A DNA stretch of 64,000 nucleotides, taken from IMG/VR virus record IMGVR_UViG_2811995317_000003, positions 1-64,000 of that record, one strand, 5' to 3'. The translations under genes were made by a program, and so were the position numbers. This DNA is from a virus (lineage: Duplodnaviria > Caudoviricetes). Of the stretch, positions 1-58,229 are shown piece by piece; within the stretch, counting starts at the first letter, position 1, and the number at the start of each line of letters is the position of its first letter. The notes beneath the pieces were generated by a model, which saw only the letters and a program-made list of their open reading frames with translations, ran no database searches and was not told the DNA's origin.

Positions 1-1254
1 ATGCTGGAACAAATGGGCGCAGCCGCGAAGGCCGCCTCTTATAAACTGGCGCTCCTTTCCAGCCGTGAGAAAAACCGCGTGCTGGAAAAAATCGCTGATT
101 ATCTGGAATCGCAATCCGCTGAGATCCTGCGAGCCAACGAACAAGATTTAGCTGAGGCGCGTGAAAACGGCCTGAGCGAAGCGATGCTCGACCGCCTGGC
201 GCTGACGCCGGCGCGCCTGAAAGGCATCGCTGATGATGTCCGTCAGGTTTGTAATCTGGCTGACCCGGTAGGGCAGGTGATTGACGGTGGGCTGCTTGAC
301 AGCGGTTTGCGTCTGGAGCGTCGCCGCGTGCCGCTCGGCGTCATTGGTGTGATTTATGAAGCCCGTCCAAACGTGACGGTTGACGTCGCCTCTCTGTGCC
401 TGAAAACCGGTAACGCTGCCATTCTGCGCGGCGGAAAAGAGACCTGGCGCACCAACGCCGCGACGGTAAACGTCATTCAGCAGGCGCTGGAAGAGTGTGG
501 CTTACCGGCGGGAGCCGTGCAGGCGATCGAGAGCCCAGACCGTGCGCTGGTCAACGAAATGCTGCGCATGGATAAATACATCGACATGTTAATCCCACGC
601 GGTGGCGCAGGTCTGCACAAGCTGTGCCGTGAACAGTCCACTATTCCGGTCATTACAGGCGGTATCGGCGTATGCCATATCGTTGTCGATGACAGCGCAG
701 AGATTGCCCCGGCGCTGAAGATTATCGTTAACGCCAAAACTCAGCGTCCAAGTACCTGTAACACCGTGGAAACGCTGCTGGTGCATCAGGGTATTGCAAA
801 TACCTTCCTCCCGGCGCTGAGCAAACAGATGGCGGAGAGCGGCGTAACGCTGCACGCGGATGCCAATGCGCTCACACTGCTCCAGGATGGCCCGGCTAAG
901 GTAGTGCCAGTCAAAGCGGAGCAGTACGATGACGAGTTCCTGTCGCTGGATCTGAACGTGAAGATTGTTAGCGATCTCGATGACGCGATTGCCCACATCC
1001 GTGAGCATGGTACCCAGCATTCTGACGCGATCCTGACGCGTACGCTGCGCAATGCCGATCGCTTCGTGAACGAAGTGGACTCCTCTGCGGTGTATGTCAA
1101 CGCCTCAACGCGCTTCACCGACGGTGGCCAGTTTGGACTTGGCGCAGAAGTGGCGGTCAGCACGCAGAAACTGCACGCGCGCGGTCCGATGGGCCTCGAA
1201 GCTCTGACCACGTACAAGTGGATCGGCTTCGGTGACGATACAATTCGTGCGTAA
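1..1254 (+). CDS. proA: gamma-glutamyl phosphate reductase
   Basis: 417 aa; motifs [48 protein letters not shown]; canonical neighbour of thrW. Confidence 0.98.
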
Positions 1255-1299
1255 ATAATCACGGGTGATGCAAAAATAGCCGTTTGATTTAAAAGGGCA

Positions 1300-1328
1300 T
1301 TGACGCATCACCCGGTTAGATCTAACCT
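1300..1328 (+). promoter_or_regulatory. sigma70 promoter of thrW
   Basis: TTGACG (1300-1305), 17 nt spacer, TAACCT (1323-1328) upstream of the tRNA. Confidence 0.7.
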
Positions 1329-1365
1329 TTTGCCCCGTGGTTACACTCGTAACCGGCCTCTCAGG

Positions 1366-1441
1366 GCCGATATAGCTCAGTTGGTAGAGCAGCGCATTCG
1401 TAATGCGAAGGTCGGAGGTTCGACTCCTCTTATCGGCACCA
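1366..1441 (+). tRNA. thrW: tRNA-Thr(CGT); 3' half supplied by prophage 1
   Basis: 76 nt GCCGATATAGCTCAG...TTCGTAA...TTCGACT...TATCGGCACCA; full cloverleaf, anticodon CGT. Confidence 0.97.
1396..1441 (+). repeat. attL core of prophage 1 (46-bp direct repeat)
   Basis: matches 41720-41765 at 44/46 positions; begins in the anticodon arm (ATTCGTAA). Confidence 0.95.
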
Positions 1442-3130: not shown

Positions 3131-3999
3131 TGCACTCCCAAAGTGGCTACGACATCACTCGCTGTTTCGCGGGTGCTGCCTTTGCTGGATATAGCCCGGC
3201 GAGCACTGACGCGGTGCAGCGTGAAGCCGTGCTGTTCGTAAAGTTCAATTACGCGCGGTGCGGTAGAATTGCTGATCACCACTTTCGCCCCCCGCTGGTG
3301 GGCTGCCACACAGCTTTCCGCAAGCTCTACCTGGCTATCCCATGAGAACCCACCAGCCGCGTAGTTAGTGAAACCAGCGGTGCCGGGAAGCGGTTCATAG
3401 GGCGGATCGCAGTAAACGACGTCACCATCACCAGCCAGTGCTAGCGTGCGCCTGAAGCCTGCATTCATGAATACGCATGCGTGAGATTTCCGCTTAAATG
3501 CCTTGATCTCTTCTTCCGGGAAATATGGCGCTTTATATTTCCCAAAGCCGACGTTAAAAAAACCGTCCAGGTTATAGCGAATCAGGCCGTTAAAGCAGTG
3601 CCGATTGAGGTAAAGGAATGCTGCTGCACGCTCGACCGCATCCAGCCGCTGCGTGTTGAATGCTTCACGAATTACCGTGTAGTTTTCGGCATCATTCAGA
3701 TGCCTGAATGCCTTCATTGCCTCATAGATCACTGAATCGGGGACCACCGCCAGCATCTGATACAGGTTAATCAGGTCAGCGTTGACGTCAGCCAGAAGGA
3801 AGCGTTCGTGCTTGTCTGAGTTAAGGAACACCGAGCCGCCACCCACAAAAGGCTCAATGAGTCGCTTTCCTGCGGGGATCAGGCGATCCAGTTCCGGCAG
3901 CAGCGAATATTTGCCGCCAGCCCATTTAAGGAATGGGCGCTGCCAAGTGCGCGGCTCTGTTTCCGTTTCTTGGCGCGATATCTCCGCACAATCACTCAT
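3127..3999 (-). CDS. dam: DNA adenine methylase, Dam/D12 family
   Basis: PFLKWAGGK, EPFVGGGSV, VYCDPPY motifs. Confidence 0.93.
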   Translation of the reverse strand: MSDCAEISRQETETEPRTWQRPFLKWAGGKYSLLPELDRLIPAGKRLIEPFVGGGSVFLNSDKHERFLLADVNADLINLYQMLAVVPDSVIYEAMKAFRHLNDAENYTVIREAFNTQRLDAVERAAAFLYLNRHCFNGLIRYNLDGFFNVGFGKYKAPYFPEEEIKAFKRKSHACVFMNAGFRRTLALAGDGDVVYCDPPYEPLPGTAGFTNYAAGGFSWDSQVELAESCVAAHQRGAKVVISNSTAPRVIELYEQHGFTLHRVSARRAISSKGSTRETASDVVATLGVQ

Positions 4000-4154
4000 G
4001 CTGCCACCTGCTTTTCGTTAAGTTCTTCAGCCAGTCGTTGCGCCTTCAGTGGGTTGGTAACGACTTCACCCCACGGCAGCAACCATCCGTTTTTCTCTTT
4101 GAGCCAGGGAAGGCGCACCGCGCCAACCCTGATTTCGTCCTGCGCGTGCGTCAT
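3996..4154 (-). CDS. small phage protein, 52 aa (DUF1317-like)
   Basis: MTHAQDEIRVGAVRLPWLKEKNGWLLPWG...; ATGA-coupled at both ends; not in ORF track. Confidence 0.65.
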   Translation of the reverse strand: MTHAQDEIRVGAVRLPWLKEKNGWLLPWGEVVTNPLKAQRLAEELNEKQVAA

Positions 4155-4882
4155 AGCGCATAGATAGAGTGAGAAGGAAACGGAAGACCGATCGGCGCAA
4201 ACGGGATATCGTCGTCAAAGTCTACCGGTGGCTGACCGCTGTTCTGCTGCAAGCGAGACTGTGGTGCGCCACTAGTCTGATTTGCATAAGGGTTACCGCC
4301 ATGTTGGGCATTGCGCGGACCGGAGAACTGCGCGCCGCCGTGGATACGTTCGTCCTTATCCTTCATCGACAGTTCAAGCGCGGCGATCGCTTCTGCTGGG
4401 GCATTCTCAGCGTGCTCAGCGTAGGTCTTACGCGTTCCCGGCTGGAAAACGTGGCGCACTTCGAACTTGTAGCCGTCGCCGCCGTCGTTTTTGGTGTACA
4501 GCACCTTCTGAAGGAACAGGCCCACCTTTTTGCCAACCAGTGCCGGGCAGTGCCATTCGATGCCGTTTTGACCCTGTACCTGCTGCGGTTGCGCCTGTTT
4601 TACCTGGGCGACCCACATCAGCGCTGATACTAGCCCCATGCCGAACGTCTGCTGGCCGTCTTTACCGAGGAAGTTAATGCGCAGGAAATTCGCCTTTAGC
4701 CCGTTGGAATCCAGGCTCAGTTCGAGCGCCTGGGACTGGCTGCCATCTTTCCCGAAGGTGTACACCGCAGAAACGATTTCGCCCTCGTAAGCGCCGGTTT
4801 CGCTGATCCCGCCTGTTGCGCCAGCTTTCTTCGCCATTTCAGCCGTTTCGTTGTTCCACATAAAAGTCATTGGTTGGTTCAT
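4151..4882 (-). CDS. phage single-stranded DNA-binding protein-like
   Basis: Q/G-rich linker and DFDDDIPF motif near C-terminus; directly downstream of Sak4-like ATPase. Confidence 0.7.
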   Translation of the reverse strand: MNQPMTFMWNNETAEMAKKAGATGGISETGAYEGEIVSAVYTFGKDGSQSQALELSLDSNGLKANFLRINFLGKDGQQTFGMGLVSALMWVAQVKQAQPQQVQGQNGIEWHCPALVGKKVGLFLQKVLYTKNDGGDGYKFEVRHVFQPGTRKTYAEHAENAPAEAIAALELSMKDKDERIHGGAQFSGPRNAQHGGNPYANQTSGAPQSRLQQNSGQPPVDFDDDIPFAPIGLPFPSHSIYAL

Positions 4883-17115: not shown

Positions 17116-17190
17116 GGGTCAGAAGCACAGAGGTTGTGAGATCGGCTGTTAACCGATTGGTCGAAGGTTCGAATCCTTCCTGTCCCGCCA
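17116..17190 (+). tRNA. phage tRNA-Asn(GTT), degenerate
   Basis: anticodon arm ATCGG-CTGTTAA-CCGAT, T arm GAAGG-TTCGAAT-CCTTC, encoded CCA; U-U mismatch in acceptor stem, G-A in D stem. Confidence 0.8.
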
Positions 17191-33678: not shown

Positions 33679-34280
33679 TGGATATTTTATCAGCGATTTT
33701 TCGCCAGCAATCCCGGCGAATTGGCCTGCTGATCCCCAGCGTGGTCGTTTCCGAAAAGCATTCTGATGCGCTCGAAATTACTGAGCACCCGGTGGAGAAG
33801 CCAACAACTAATAGCGCCTCGGGTTTCATTGCCGATCATGCGTATAAGCGCCCCAGCGAAGTCACAATGGAATGCGGCTTCGCTGGGGGCGGTTCGTTGC
33901 TGGACTTCATTGATACATCTTCAATCGGCCTCAGCGCCGGACTGAGCCCGAAAGATACCTATCAGCAACTACTGGATCTCCAGTCCTCCCGGGTGCCGTT
34001 CGATGTGGTGACCGGGAAGCGGGTGTATAGCAATATGCTGGTGCGAGCCATCGAGGTGACAACGGACAAAACCAGCGAGAACGTGCTGAACTGCACGCTT
34101 ACCCTGCGTGAAGTGATCATGTCGCAAACGCAGAGCGTTAGCGTTGCTGATAAATCAGATATGCAAGATGGCGTCAGCACATCGGCGGTGCAAAATGCCG
34201 GGACGAAATCCACTACACCGCCAAACGAATCCTTGCTGAGCCAGCTGGGCGGAAGCGTTACATCAGCATTCGGGGGATGA
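33678..34280 (+). CDS. baseplate/distal tail protein
   Basis: EITEHPVE, follows tape measure. Confidence 0.7.
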   Translation: MDILSAIFRQQSRRIGLLIPSVVVSEKHSDALEITEHPVEKPTTNSASGFIADHAYKRPSEVTMECGFAGGGSLLDFIDTSSIGLSAGLSPKDTYQQLLDLQSSRVPFDVVTGKRVYSNMLVRAIEVTTDKTSENVLNCTLTLREVIMSQTQSVSVADKSDMQDGVSTSAVQNAGTKSTTPPNESLLSQLGGSVTSAFGG

Positions 34281-34281
34281 T

Positions 34282-34587
34282 ATGCAGTTTAACGAAATAC
34301 CGCTTTCTCCTGACAATCAGCAGTTTCGCGTTTTGCTGGGCAATACCACGTATACGCTCAGGATCATCTGGCGCGACGCGGCTGGCTGGATCATGGACGT
34401 GATGGATAGCGGCGGAGCTGCGCTTCTCTCTGGCGTACCTCTACTGACCGGCGTAAACCTGTTGCGGCAATATCCACAGCTTGGCATTGATGGCGCACTG
34501 GTGGTGGCGACCGATAACGGCGCACCAGACGAGCCCACCAAAACCAACCTCGGCACATACAGCCACCTCATTTTCGTACAGGAGTAG
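34282..34587 (+). CDS. baseplate plug-like protein
   Basis: position and size. Confidence 0.6.
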   Translation: MQFNEIPLSPDNQQFRVLLGNTTYTLRIIWRDAAGWIMDVMDSGGAALLSGVPLLTGVNLLRQYPQLGIDGALVVATDNGAPDEPTKTNLGTYSHLIFVQE

Positions 34588-50222: not shown

Positions 50223-50435
50223 CTCCGCGCTTAAGCCGCGCCGCTGAACGTTAACAAAGACTTCTGCGCTAATGGGCGGTGTATGGCCGCCGGTTGTCAT
50301 AACTTGAGTCACTCGTAAATGACTCCAGGTATGAAAAAGGCCGCCTACCTGGCAGCCTCAACCTGAATGAGTGCCGGGGTATTTATCCGCGCCCGGCGCG
50401 CGCTTTCCCGCTATTCCCCAACAGCAAGAAATCGC

Positions 50436-50783
50436 TTACTCTTTAATCTCCCCAACAGTAGAAAGGATATATTCATGCAAACCATGCGGACCGTGTGCCC
50501 TGACTGCGGAAGTGAGATGTTCAACCAGCCCGATGATTTTGACTTTGAGACAAATTTCACCGGCGTCAGTTGTGCTGACTGTGGTCGAGAAATCACTAAG
50601 GACGATGTTGTCAATCAGGCCACGGACACGGTCAAAAAACAGATCGACGACATGCTCAGGAATTCCCTCAAAGGAACTGGCTGGAAGTTCAAGTAGCTTT
50701 AAAAGCTCCCCAGTCTGAGTAAGCACCTCGCTGGCGTCTACGTTAAGCAGTAGTGGCGCCGTTTTTTTATCTGACATACACAC
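50436..50783 (-). CDS. first pL-operon gene, hypothetical (occupies HK022 nun position)
   Basis: GAGGGG RBS just downstream of putL. Confidence 0.55.
   Translation of the reverse strand: MCMSDKKTAPLLLNVDASEVLTQTGELLKLLELPASSFEGIPEHVVDLFFDRVRGLIDNIVLSDFSTTVSTTDAGEICLKVKIIGLVEHLTSAVRAHGPHGLHEYILSTVGEIKE
50475..50696 (+). CDS. small zinc-ribbon protein, antisense-nested
   Basis: CPDCG...CADCG; AAGGA RBS. Confidence 0.7.
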   Translation: MQTMRTVCPDCGSEMFNQPDDFDFETNFTGVSCADCGREITKDDVVNQATDTVKKQIDDMLRNSLKGTGWKFK

Positions 50784-50837
50784 CCCTCTGATTGTTTACC
50801 GTCAGCCCCTCGCAAAGAGCTGTTGGTAAATCGCTTT

Positions 50838-50905
50838 GCCATAATTGCCGCTCTTCCTGAGCCCGCCTATGGTCCGACGCATGGTTTACTGTCGCGCCGT
50901 TCGAC
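50838..50905 (-). ncRNA. putL-like antiterminator RNA
   Basis: GTCGAACGGCGCGAC...AAACCATGCGTCGG...GGCGGGCTCAGGAAGAGCGGCAAT two-stem element just after pL; closely resembles recalled HK022 putL. Confidence 0.75.
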
Positions 50906-50936
50906 TGACCGAAACGCTGTGTTGTTTCGATGGGCT

Positions 50937-50981
50937 TATAATGTACTGAAAGTTCATTCATGTAAAGTACCAATAGTACAT
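50937..50981 (-). promoter_or_regulatory. pL and oL of prophage 2
   Basis: TTTACA-N17-CATTAT on minus strand; operators ATGTACTGAAAGTTCAT (50941-50957) and AAGTACCAATAGTACAT (50965-50981). Confidence 0.75.
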
Positions 50982-51040
50982 ATTTTAGGTAAAAAAAGTC
51001 CATTTTGTCATAACATAATGAACTTTAAGGTAATTTATTT

Positions 51041-51748
51041 TTATCCGAACCGACGATAATCTATCGACTGACGAAGCAAGACCTTGGCTACCACGTGAAG
51101 CTGGTCTTCGTCAGCTTCTTCAATATGCCAGCGCTCGTATATCGGATTGTCAGATATGACAACTAGCTTGTCTTTCTGCATCTGCAGGCGTTTTACATGA
51201 AGGGTTCTGCCATAGACGAAAACATAAATTCCGTCAGCATCAAAATGGTTAACGGACACATCAACGAAGATCTCGTCACCAGGATTGATAGTCCCCTCCA
51301 TGCTGTCGCCACTAACAGTGATGACTTTTATATGGTCTTGAGGCCTGCCATTAAATAAAGTTCTGGCGTGCTCAGTTGTGTACTCAATAGCCCTGACCTT
51401 CTCAATGAATTCATTGGAAATCATAGTCCCCGGCCCAGCACTCGCTTGAACATCTAATACGTCCACTCGATAAGAGTCGGACACCTTAGAGGCGTGGTTA
51501 GGTGTGATACCGTCCTCTGTAGCGTACCCATGAAGGTAAGCAGCTGTAGTCCCCAGCACCGATGCTAGCAACTCCATCTTCTCCTTTCTTGGAACCGATT
51601 CGCCATTAAACCACTTACTTACGGCCTTCGGTGTGAGTTTCATTCTAGCAGCTAGATCAGCCTGCCTGCCATGTTGTGGAAGTCCCGCCTTATCACAGGC
51701 CAGCGCAAGCCTTAGCGAGAATTTTTCACGCTCATTTTGTTGAACCAT
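51041..51748 (-). CDS. cI: CI repressor, HK022-like, 235 aa
   Basis: MVQQNEREKFS..LALACDKAGLP.HGRQADLA; ASAGPG, GDSM, VKRL; strongly resembles recalled HK022 CI. Confidence 0.92.
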   Translation of the reverse strand: MVQQNEREKFSLRLALACDKAGLPQHGRQADLAARMKLTPKAVSKWFNGESVPRKEKMELLASVLGTTAAYLHGYATEDGITPNHASKVSDSYRVDVLDVQASAGPGTMISNEFIEKVRAIEYTTEHARTLFNGRPQDHIKVITVSGDSMEGTINPGDEIFVDVSVNHFDADGIYVFVYGRTLHVKRLQMQKDKLVVISDNPIYERWHIEEADEDQLHVVAKVLLRQSIDYRRFG

Positions 51749-51813
51749 CAGTTCAACTATATCTGTACTTGACTGTACTATCAGTTCCGTCATAATATGA
51801 ACTACAAGTTCAC
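51740..51813 (+). promoter_or_regulatory. oR (three 17-bp operators) and pR of prophage 2
   Basis: TTGAACCATCAGTTCAA 51740, CTGTACTATCAGTTCCG 51773, ATGAACTACAAGTTCAC 51797; TTGACT-N16-CATAAT. Confidence 0.8.
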
Positions 51814-51821
51814 CACTGGAG

Positions 51822-52058
51822 ATGCAAATGAACGAAGTTACGTTTGGACACGTCATTAAATCCGTTCGTGTGTCTGTTGTGGCTGAGGTTTGCGGACTTA
51901 CGCCCAAGGCCATTTACAAATGGATTGAGCGTGGTTCTCTGCCGCGTACCGAGTTTACAGGAGAAACCGAGTACGCGGACAAGATCGCCAAAGCATCAGG
52001 CGGCAAGTATTCAGCAGCACAGATTCGCCGTATCGGTAAGCAGAAATTAGTCATGTAA
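51822..52058 (+). CDS. cro: Cro
   Basis: VAEVCGLTPKAIYKWIERGSLPRTE. Confidence 0.85.
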   Translation: MQMNEVTFGHVIKSVRVSVVAEVCGLTPKAIYKWIERGSLPRTEFTGETEYADKIAKASGGKYSAAQIRRIGKQKLVM

Positions 52059-52063
52059 TAAAA

Positions 52064-52080
52064 ATGTACTTTTAGTACCG
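52064..52080 (+). promoter_or_regulatory. far-right operator (OFR-like)
   Basis: ATGTACTTTTAGTACCG matches operator consensus; lies downstream of cro as in HK022. Confidence 0.65.
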
Positions 52081-52139
52081 AACGGCCCGGTATATGGTCG
52101 GGTGCCCGGCGTGGTCATGGATGACTGTCAATGGTGCAC
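52077..52139 (+). ncRNA. putR-like antiterminator RNA
   Basis: ACCGAACGGCCCGGT...GTCGG then stem GTGC..GGC..GTCA-TGGA-TGAC.GTC-AAT..GCAC; same motifs as 50838-50905. Confidence 0.7.
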
Positions 52140-52196
52140 GATAAAAAGAACAAACATTTATCAATTAACTATTTCACACCAAAGGAATTATCACAT

Positions 52197-52496
52197 ATGG
52201 AAAACTCAATTAATCGCAACAAGGCCAATGCCCAGCGCATTTTGTCCTGGTTGCTTAACCAAATCGCCATGAAAGGTGGCAACAACGTAGCTAAAGAGAT
52301 CGGCGTCGATAAGGCACAGATAACACGCTGGAAAGAAACGTGGCTGCCGAAGATGGCAATGCTATTGGCAGTTCTGGAGTGGGGTGTCGTTGATGACGAT
52401 ATGGCGCGGCTGGCAAAGCAGGTTGCAGAGATTCTCACCAATAAAAAACGCCCGGCGGCAACCGAGCGTTATGACCAGATGAATATGAACTTCTAA
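52197..52496 (+). CDS. cII: CII activator
   Basis: VAKEIGVDKAQITRWK, LLAVLEWG, KKRP tail. Confidence 0.88.
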   Translation: MENSINRNKANAQRILSWLLNQIAMKGGNNVAKEIGVDKAQITRWKETWLPKMAMLLAVLEWGVVDDDMARLAKQVAEILTNKKRPAATERYDQMNMNF

Positions 52497-52504
52497 TAAC
52501 TCAG
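52443..52504 (-). ncRNA. OOP-like antisense RNA ending at lambda t0-type terminator
   Basis: AACGCTCGGTTGCCGCCGGGCGTTTTTT (52470-52443); upstream TTGCCT-N17-CATAAT at 52539-52511. Confidence 0.65.
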
Positions 52505-52513
52505 AGGTGAATT

Positions 52514-53215
52514 ATGCCAGGAATTATGATCTCAGGCAACAATGCCAAAATTGGCACTGATGAGCTTCTTTCCATTATCAATCAGGCCCGATTAGAGCAT
52601 GGAGAAAAGCCAGTTCGTAACAATGATTTTATCCCTCGGGTCAAGGATGAGCTTGAAGGGGAGCACTACGAAACTTTCGTAGTTCAAAATTCAAACGGCA
52701 CAAAATCAGAAAACCTTGTGGTATCCAACGACCAGGCAGTATTGATTGGCATGAGGGAGTCGAAGGCGGTTCGCCGAACTGTCCTCACAAAACTAAAGGA
52801 AAAGGAGCCTCCATTATTGCCTCAAACGCTGCCTGAGGCGTTGAGACTTGCAGCTGATTTAGCTGAAGAGAAAATTCAGTTAGAGAGTCAGTTAGCCATT
52901 GCCGCCCCGAAAGCACAATTCGTGGATAGCTACGTCAATGCATCTGGATCTCTCGGCTTCCGCGAGACCTGCAAATTACTCCACATCAAAGAAAACGCCT
53001 TCCGTCAGTTCCTGCTCGAAAGTGAAATCATGTACCTGCTTGCAGGCAAGCTAACGCCGTATGCGCAGCATATTGATGCTGGGCGTTTCACTGTGAAAAC
53101 AGGCGAGAACCAGAATAACGGCCACGCCTTCACCCAAAACAAATTCACGCCCAAGGGCATCCAGTGGATCGCCGGACTGTGGGCGGCACATCAAATCGGA
53201 GACAAGGCGGCATGA
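52514..53215 (+). CDS. antirepressor with KilAC domain
   Basis: LPQTLPEALRLAADL, AAPKAQFVD, FTPKGIQW. Confidence 0.85.
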   Translation: MPGIMISGNNAKIGTDELLSIINQARLEHGEKPVRNNDFIPRVKDELEGEHYETFVVQNSNGTKSENLVVSNDQAVLIGMRESKAVRRTVLTKLKEKEPPLLPQTLPEALRLAADLAEEKIQLESQLAIAAPKAQFVDSYVNASGSLGFRETCKLLHIKENAFRQFLLESEIMYLLAGKLTPYAQHIDAGRFTVKTGENQNNGHAFTQNKFTPKGIQWIAGLWAAHQIGDKAA

Positions 53216-56956: not shown

Positions 56957-57063
56957 CCAGAGACGAGATAACCCGGTACCAGGCAGAAAGCGTTAAGCGC
57001 GCCAGCCTACCGCCAGTAGCAAAGCACAGCCAGACCAAACAACCTAAGAAGGAAGCAGCATGA
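56953..57063 (+). CDS. 36-aa coupled peptide
   Basis: GTGA and ATGA overlaps; resembles first 16 aa of prophage 1 Q. Confidence 0.45.
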   Translation: MTRDEITRYQAESVKRASLPPVAKHSQTKQPKKEAA

Positions 57064-57683
57064 GAAAGCTCACACCAATTTACTCCATGGTCAACTTTGT
57101 CGATGACGCTCACTTCCGCCGTGTCTGGAAGCATCCCAAAAAGACCATAACCCCAAAGCAACGGGCATGGGTGCAGTACATGCTGACTGTGTGGGGTCGC
57201 ATTAACCGTGGCGATGATTCTCCTGCCGGTGCCATTAACGTCATTGGCCGATTGATGATCCGCAGCCAATGGAGTCCTGATATGGGTGGACACATCGAGA
57301 GGATGGTCAACTGGCTTTATAGCGATGAAGGAGGGGCGCTGAGAGGTGAGGCGCTTTATAAAAAAGCTCGCGAACTGGTTATCCCTCAGTCATCAGCCAG
57401 CAACATCATCGCTCTCGCCAAAGAATCAGATGATGCCGCATTCGTAGAAAAAGTGATGGTTAAGCTGTTTCACCGGGAAAGCCCAGTCCGCGATTATGCA
57501 ATTAAACGTTATTGTGAGCGCAACTGCACTCAACATATCGCTCAGGCAATGAGCAGAGTAACCGGCGTGGATGTGCAGCAGTGCCGCCGCCGGGTCGTGT
57601 GGTGCGAGAAGGTTTTTGAATCAGAACTCTTTTATGCCTTACAACGTGAGATGGAGAAAGAAAACGAACTTCAGGCCACTTAA
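57060..57683 (+). CDS. late antiterminator Q-like
   Basis: position before pR'; homologous to 16314-16997. Confidence 0.75.
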   Translation: MRKLTPIYSMVNFVDDAHFRRVWKHPKKTITPKQRAWVQYMLTVWGRINRGDDSPAGAINVIGRLMIRSQWSPDMGGHIERMVNWLYSDEGGALRGEALYKKARELVIPQSSASNIIALAKESDDAAFVEKVMVKLFHRESPVRDYAIKRYCERNCTQHIAQAMSRVTGVDVQQCRRRVVWCEKVFESELFYALQREMEKENELQAT

Positions 57684-57882
57684 TTAGAAAATATTTATCT
57701 GAAAGTGTTGATTTGGCGAAATGAAAGTGCATAATTCAGTATATGCTCGGACGTCAAAGGCGAAAGAGCGCGGTGATGAAGTGCAAGATGACAGCGCTCA
57801 TGAATCGGGGACATCGAAAGCCCAAAAGCTGAATTGTGTGGCGACAGCAAAAACGCGACTTGAGCCATCACCAATAATTTAG

Positions 57883-57910
57883 AGCCACTGGTTAACGCCG
57901 GTGGCTTTTT
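57883..57910 (+). terminator. tR'-like terminator
   Basis: AGCCACTGG-TTAACG-CCGGTGGCT followed by U tract. Confidence 0.85.
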
Positions 57911-58229
57911 CATTTCTGCATAACGGAAATCGCTTTGAGTATGTGACGGCATCCCGGTGAGACCAGGTACATTTCCCTGGCGCGGCAAAGCGATCCCCGT
58001 TGTGGTGAATGTCCTGATGGCGTCGTAAAGCGATAGCCATGAATGCCGGATAGCAGCACCGGTCACCACACCCAAACCCACTACCTGGGACCCTTCGGCC
58101 AGAGAGCCGACATTGCCTTACCCTCACATTGCCAGCCTGTCGCTGGCTTTTTTATTTGCGATGTCCGGTCGTTGTTTCCTGGCATCCTTCCACTCTACAC
58201 AAACAGCACCCCGTTCTTTCGGAGGTGAT

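Follow-up and report, generated by a model that had tools for sequence, protein, structure and literature searches.

The closest described counterparts of the elements analysed here were the put (polymerase-utilisation) RNAs of HK022 and HK639. In the cryo-EM structure of HK022 put (PDB 7XUE), the 5′ duplex is pseudoknotted, and a triplex and five non-canonical pairs are also present (PMC9378689). Put docks on the zinc-binding domain and flap tip of RNA polymerase and counters swivelling and exit-channel hairpins (PMC9378689; PMC8632103), and in HK022 these RNAs require nothing beyond pure polymerase for activity (PMC9378689). Mutation at A9, U28, G35, G45, or A64 inactivates HK022 putL, a −10-like hexamer inside the same RNA was proposed to aid it through sigma-dependent pausing at +23 to +28, and HK022 putR starts approximately 270 nt after the pR start (PMC9378689). 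Put elements, operators, and OFR carry annotation in O276 (a HK022 derivative; putL and putR) and in HK75 (likewise putL and putR), and the HK639 feature used for comparison was the "putL-like antiterminator RNA" at positions 34187-34312 of GenBank HM208537. This HK639 RNA was reportedly the subject of King et al. 2011, J Bacteriol 193:5784.

The window (the whole stretch of 64,000 nt analysed, i.e., positions 1 to 64,000 of IMG/VR record IMGVR_UViG_2811995317_000003) harbored one element after pL and another between cro and cII (Table 1). Judged by their sequences, the two RNAs were very probably genuine put RNAs of a lambdoid prophage with HK022-type immunity, and their binding to polymerase and the resulting read-through would follow from the work on HK022. 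The put system of this prophage was thus one already known, with a mechanism solved by cryo-EM.

Table 1. Coordinates of the features in and around the immunity region of the window
Feature	Position	Strand	Basis and details
Host flank	1-1438		Matching E. coli records annotate proA; tRNA at 1366-1438
Intrinsic terminator, tL1 candidate	50329-50359	-	Own scan, -14.7 kcal/mol; 8-bp G+C-rich stem plus T run
putL, predicted antiterminator RNA, HK639 type	50837-50906	-	Alignment, strict pattern, covariance model; corresponds to HK022 positions 3-72
Predicted hairpin at 5′ end of pL transcript	50908-50931	-	Alignment, folding; 8-bp stem, 8-nt loop, 24 nt
pL promoter	50938-50966	-	-35 at 50966-50961, -10 at 50943-50938; consensus scan 9/12; HK022/HK75 alignment
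Left operators	50942-51033		OL1 50942-50956, OL2 ~50965-50980, OL3 51019-51033; HK75/O276 alignment
cI repressor, 235 aa	51041-51748	-	80% aa identity to HK022/O276 CI; phrog_4 and CI-like repressor families
Right operators	51741-51812		OR3 51741-51755, OR2 51774-51788, OR1 51798-51812; HK75 alignment
pR promoter	-35 51769-51774, -10 51791-51796	+	Promoter scan, 10/12 matches
cro, 76 aa	51828-52058	+	93% aa identity to HK022/O276 Cro
OFR operator	52065-52079		Alignment with HK75, where OFR is annotated beside putR
putR, predicted antiterminator RNA, HK022 type	52076-52139	+	Alignment, strict pattern, covariance model; ~270 nt from pR start
cII, first gene past putR	52197-52496	+	phrog_191 CII-like activator, E 4e-34

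A strict put pattern, derived from an alignment of the HK022, HK75, and HK639 sites together with those of the window, matched the window only at 50844-50903 (minus strand) and 52079-52132 (plus strand), with 0.00 matches expected and none found in 100 shuffles. In a search with a covariance model derived from 38 different putL variants, putL reached 87 bits (E 1.5e-17) and putR 42 bits (E 1.1e-7); the E-value of the next match was 0.39, and pattern and model alike recognized only these two put sites in the whole 87-kb provirus record. The earlier note on this DNA had proposed putL- and putR-like elements at positions that agreed with the present ones to 1-2 nt, and the common motifs, stem-II loops, and AAU bulge that it had read from the letters were all found in both elements by alignment and covariance model. 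It had also named alignment to HK022 and HK639 put as a check; putL and putR of the window aligned with the annotated put elements of O276, HK75, and HK639 in long invariant blocks, pointing to direct homology. The Rfam search gave no put match at gathering thresholds or even at E up to 10, and put was thus taken to be missing from Rfam. Free-energy folding of putL and putR gave results no better than those of shuffles (z -0.27 and 0.04, respectively), which was expected and uninformative, as put RNA has non-canonical pairs and its 5′ duplex is pseudoknotted.

Compared by sequence, putL and putR of the window were near-exact copies of the versions annotated in HK639 and HK022: (i) over window positions 50700-50913, identity to the HK639 stretch bearing the "putL-like antiterminator RNA" annotation was 95.3% (megablast against phage records, E 8e-91), all putL paired positions and the structured core were identical to HK639, and the only two differences over the 80 nt around putL both lay 3′ of the last base pair; and (ii) putR had two nucleotide differences from HK022/O276 putR, one each in the stem-I bulge and the stem-II loop, while window positions 50927-52147 were 81% identical to the cI-cro-putR region of HK022/O276/HK75 (megablast against phage records). 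When aligned to HK022 numbering, putL of the window kept the 5′ duplex together with A9, U28, G35, G45, and A64; putR had A9, G35, G45, and A64, and its shorter bulge gave no assignable counterpart of U28. The 5′ duplex of putR was maintained via three changed pairs, and every putR pair in the covariance model was a standard one. The 80-nt putL stretch was identical in 26 fetched loci, and the 54-nt core of putR in 12.

Covariation was counted on putL alone with putR placed by the covariance model; a joint MAFFT alignment of putL and putR misplaced the putR gap and was therefore not used. A total of 22 pairs were counted in the 38 putL variants, taken from the 5′ duplex (3-7/15-19), lower stem I (10-14/30-34), and stem II: 95.7% of cells were paired, both partners had changed in eight pairs, and covariation scored 0.162 versus 0.046 in shuffles, a value reached by 0/500 of them. 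Pairing fell to approximately 24% when partners were slid by one column. With HK022 putL numbering mapped on the alignment, every pair and residue of the cryo-EM paper fell on the expected letter, and the putL covariation fits the cryo-EM structure. The earlier note had expected natural covariation from this pair: the putL variants did covary, and the putR duplex was kept by paired changes, but the window itself added nothing new because the same alleles were already present in HK639 and E. coli prophages.

The immunity region was compared with those of HK022, O276, and HK75. OR2 and OFR were identical to the HK022-type sites (OFR being an exact match to HK022/O276), while OR1 and OR3 were off by 1-2 nt, and, as in HK75, the OFR site ran into the first nucleotides of putR. 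By sequence, the CI and Cro proteins and all operators, OFR included, thus belong to the HK022 immunity group, and the HK022 design that the earlier note had proposed for CI, operators, and OFR was borne out by alignment. A Kluyvera sichuanensis contig (L005, positions 3417-4795) had an immunity region 97.8% identical to window positions 50844-52222; putL of L005 had the HK022-type lower stem II, and thus the left boundary of the block common to L005 and the window fell inside putL.

The proA flank was 87% identical to Enterobacter cloacae, its best match was 90% identical and came from a member of that family, and it had no megablast match in E. coli. An Enterobacter-like member of Enterobacteriaceae is supported as the host by these sequences, in line with the suggestion of a host other than E. 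coli. A second tRNA was located at 17116-17187. In each of the three nearest host relatives, RpoC residues 1-150, a stretch covering the four zinc cysteines, Y75, R77, L78, and K79, matched those of E. coli K-12 exactly; with rpoC read from these relatives, the polymerase target of put is thus almost certainly unchanged in this host.

By homology with HK022, from which we infer both binding and read-through, putL would be transcribed from pL, and putR from pR through cro. Each put RNA would fold co-transcriptionally into a V-shaped form with two stems and a pseudoknotted 5′ duplex, dock on the beta-prime zinc-binding domain and flap tip of the polymerase that made it, and stay bound at the RNA exit of that polymerase. 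The bound RNA would work against swivelling and against hairpins forming in the exit channel, and the modified polymerase, requiring no N protein, would resist pausing and pass intrinsic and Rho-dependent terminators for many kilobases. On the left, read-through would extend across the tL1 candidate, ahead of kil, gam, recT, and exo; this terminator lay between putL and the kil/gam/recT genes, and Rfam gave a partial terminator-like match over 50333-50367. On the right, read-through would reach cII, O, P, and Q, and the targets would be Rho-dependent sites since the terminator scan of the interval from putR to Q gave no strong intrinsic candidate.

Two further transcription signals were observed: (i) an oop-like antisense unit at 52440-52539 (minus strand), with an extended −10 promoter at 52539-52511 and a strong terminator at 52470-52447 followed by a T run inside the cII 3′ end, the lambda oop RNA likewise terminating inside the cII 3′ end; and (ii) a strong terminator at 57881-57916 (plus strand), approximately 200 nt past the Q-like gene (57060-57683), which probably serves Q-dependent late antitermination as its tR′ target.

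That the put-like sequences are inactive relics inherited by a defective prophage is improbable: every critical nucleotide and pair was retained, identical alleles were present in many independent loci, the genes cI, cro, cII, O, P, Q, kil, gam, and recT were intact, and the record had an estimated completeness of 100 (CheckV). Functional put RNAs, the preferred reading, were also in keeping with the gene content of the two early operons: the pL operon encoded small proteins with no assigned function, Kil, an HNH endonuclease, GamL, and RecT, and the pR operon encoded CII, an Ant-like protein, O, P, Ren, RusA, and Q.

The earlier note had stated that no N gene was present, and the pL-operon open reading frames gave no match to N or Nun families in PHROGs, Pfam, or NCBIfam. 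It is very improbable that an unrecognised N-like protein antiterminates, with the conserved RNAs as its recruitment sites; a candidate would be the first pL open reading frame (50436-50783, minus strand, 115 aa, annotated as gp45 in HK639), which had no known function, but this product is acidic and lacks an arginine-rich motif as well as any N/Nun family match, boxA was not found near pL or pR, and HK022 put is active with pure polymerase (PMC9378689). Moreover, the 115-aa frame may be no gene at all, because a gene of a curated zinc-ribbon family lies on the opposite strand: a 73-aa frame at 50475-50696 (plus strand) matched NCBIfam ECs_2282_CxxC at 81.8 bits (cut-off 37), and the two frames overlapped in the slot that nun occupies in HK022. 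Among related loci, conservation fell away steeply immediately 3′ of the stop codon of the zinc-ribbon frame, an observation in favour of this plus-strand gene over the 115-aa frame; codon-position counts at 50436-50783 covered only eight variable sites. If the plus-strand gene is real, it would be transcribed against pL.

The 5′ leader of putL differed from that of HK022. From homology with the HK022 pL start, the pL transcript of the window would begin at 50931, and put would start at +26 compared to +3 in HK022, owing to a 23-nt insert between transcript +2 and the first put nucleotide. The leader hairpin, which included the first transcribed nucleotide, folded at -7.3 kcal/mol (z -4.2; equalled by 0/200 shuffles). 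The 121 putL loci with enough upstream sequence were sorted into leader classes: (i) the short HK022 arrangement in 38; (ii) the 24-nt hairpin in 23, behind at least four different promoter/operator types; (iii) the ~70-nt HK639 leader, with the same two ends kept, in 56; and (iv) none of these three classes in the remaining 4. The insert was also considered as a one-off joint between a HK022-type immunity region and a HK639-type left arm, which was rejected because the same leader was found in 23 loci behind at least four promoter/operator types. Stem changes within the hairpin class comprised one compensatory pair and one wobble, all remaining changes being in the loop, and this thin record suggests that the hairpin is a conserved accessory element. 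It is possible, as a tentative prediction, that the 24-nt hairpin and its 70-nt HK639 counterpart make up an undescribed accessory domain of putL, which might protect the transcript 5′ end or help put fold away from the RNA start. The natural leader classes placed the start of put at +3, +26, or ~+73, and the −10-like hexamer of putL lay at +46 to +51 in the window and further out in HK639; if the accessory domain is true, these positions would also argue against a requirement for the sigma-dependent promoter-proximal pause proposed for folding of HK022 putL. The overlap of OFR with the first putR nucleotides and the stable, conserved 5′-terminal hairpin could also be read as marks of repressor-controlled roadblocks or stability elements rather than antiterminators, the least credible of the alternatives, since both are extras around a put core, not substitutes for it, and this core matches nucleotide for nucleotide RNAs with established antitermination.

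The strict pattern, when applied to 185,579 species genomes, matched seven stretches in six of them, belonging to Enterobacter, Kluyvera, Siccibacter, Escherichia, and Pantoea, and it matched at least 118 IMG/VR contigs. The putL type of the window was present in 32/5426 complete E. coli genomes and its putR in 15/5426, and none of the E. coli genome matches listed had an annotated feature beneath it. The statement that put RNAs are known from few phages consequently holds for experiments but not for sequences, given the IMG/VR count. With put missing from Rfam and its E. coli copies unannotated, automatic annotation misses these RNAs, and such prophages therefore appear to lack early antitermination.

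The survey yielded a total of 38 putL and 17 putR variants. HK639-type putL was paired with putR in just 3/34 loci, namely, the window, L069, and L098; the latter two were only 89.5% and 82% identical, respectively, to the window over the immunity region and thus were not its clones. Neither pattern nor model found putR in the 31 other HK639-type loci, which had at least 3 kb of room on the cI side and included L014, L024, L031-L033, L042 (HK639), and about 25 others, or in the complete HK639 genome. For HK639-type prophages without putR, put does not explain how the right operon escapes termination. The survey, with its three leader classes, rare pairing, and putL and putR variants, could seed a family model.

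As a put system, this prophage adds little, its alleles being copies of ones already annotated and studied. Relative to HK022, the window had cI, cro, and operators of the same type, and putR in the same slot between cro and cII at the same distance of ~270 nt from the pR start; but nun was absent, with the opposite-strand zinc-ribbon frame in its place, and putL was preceded by the extra 5′ hairpin, had one swapped pair in its 5′ duplex, and carried the HK639-type lower stem II, which was fully different from that of HK022 yet complementary. Relative to HK639, the lower stem II of putL had the same sequence, and the bulge of HK022 was absent from both, while the two differed in the leader between pL and put (~70 nt in HK639 and the 23-nt hairpin leader in the window) and in putR, which was found in the window but, with the covariance model, not in the HK639 genome. 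Relative to the N/nut system of lambda, the put elements would perform the same task and share its map positions, one element following pL and the other separating cro from cII, but in a region with neither an N gene nor boxA, where the RNA, by analogy with HK022, would act alone on polymerase (PMC9378689).
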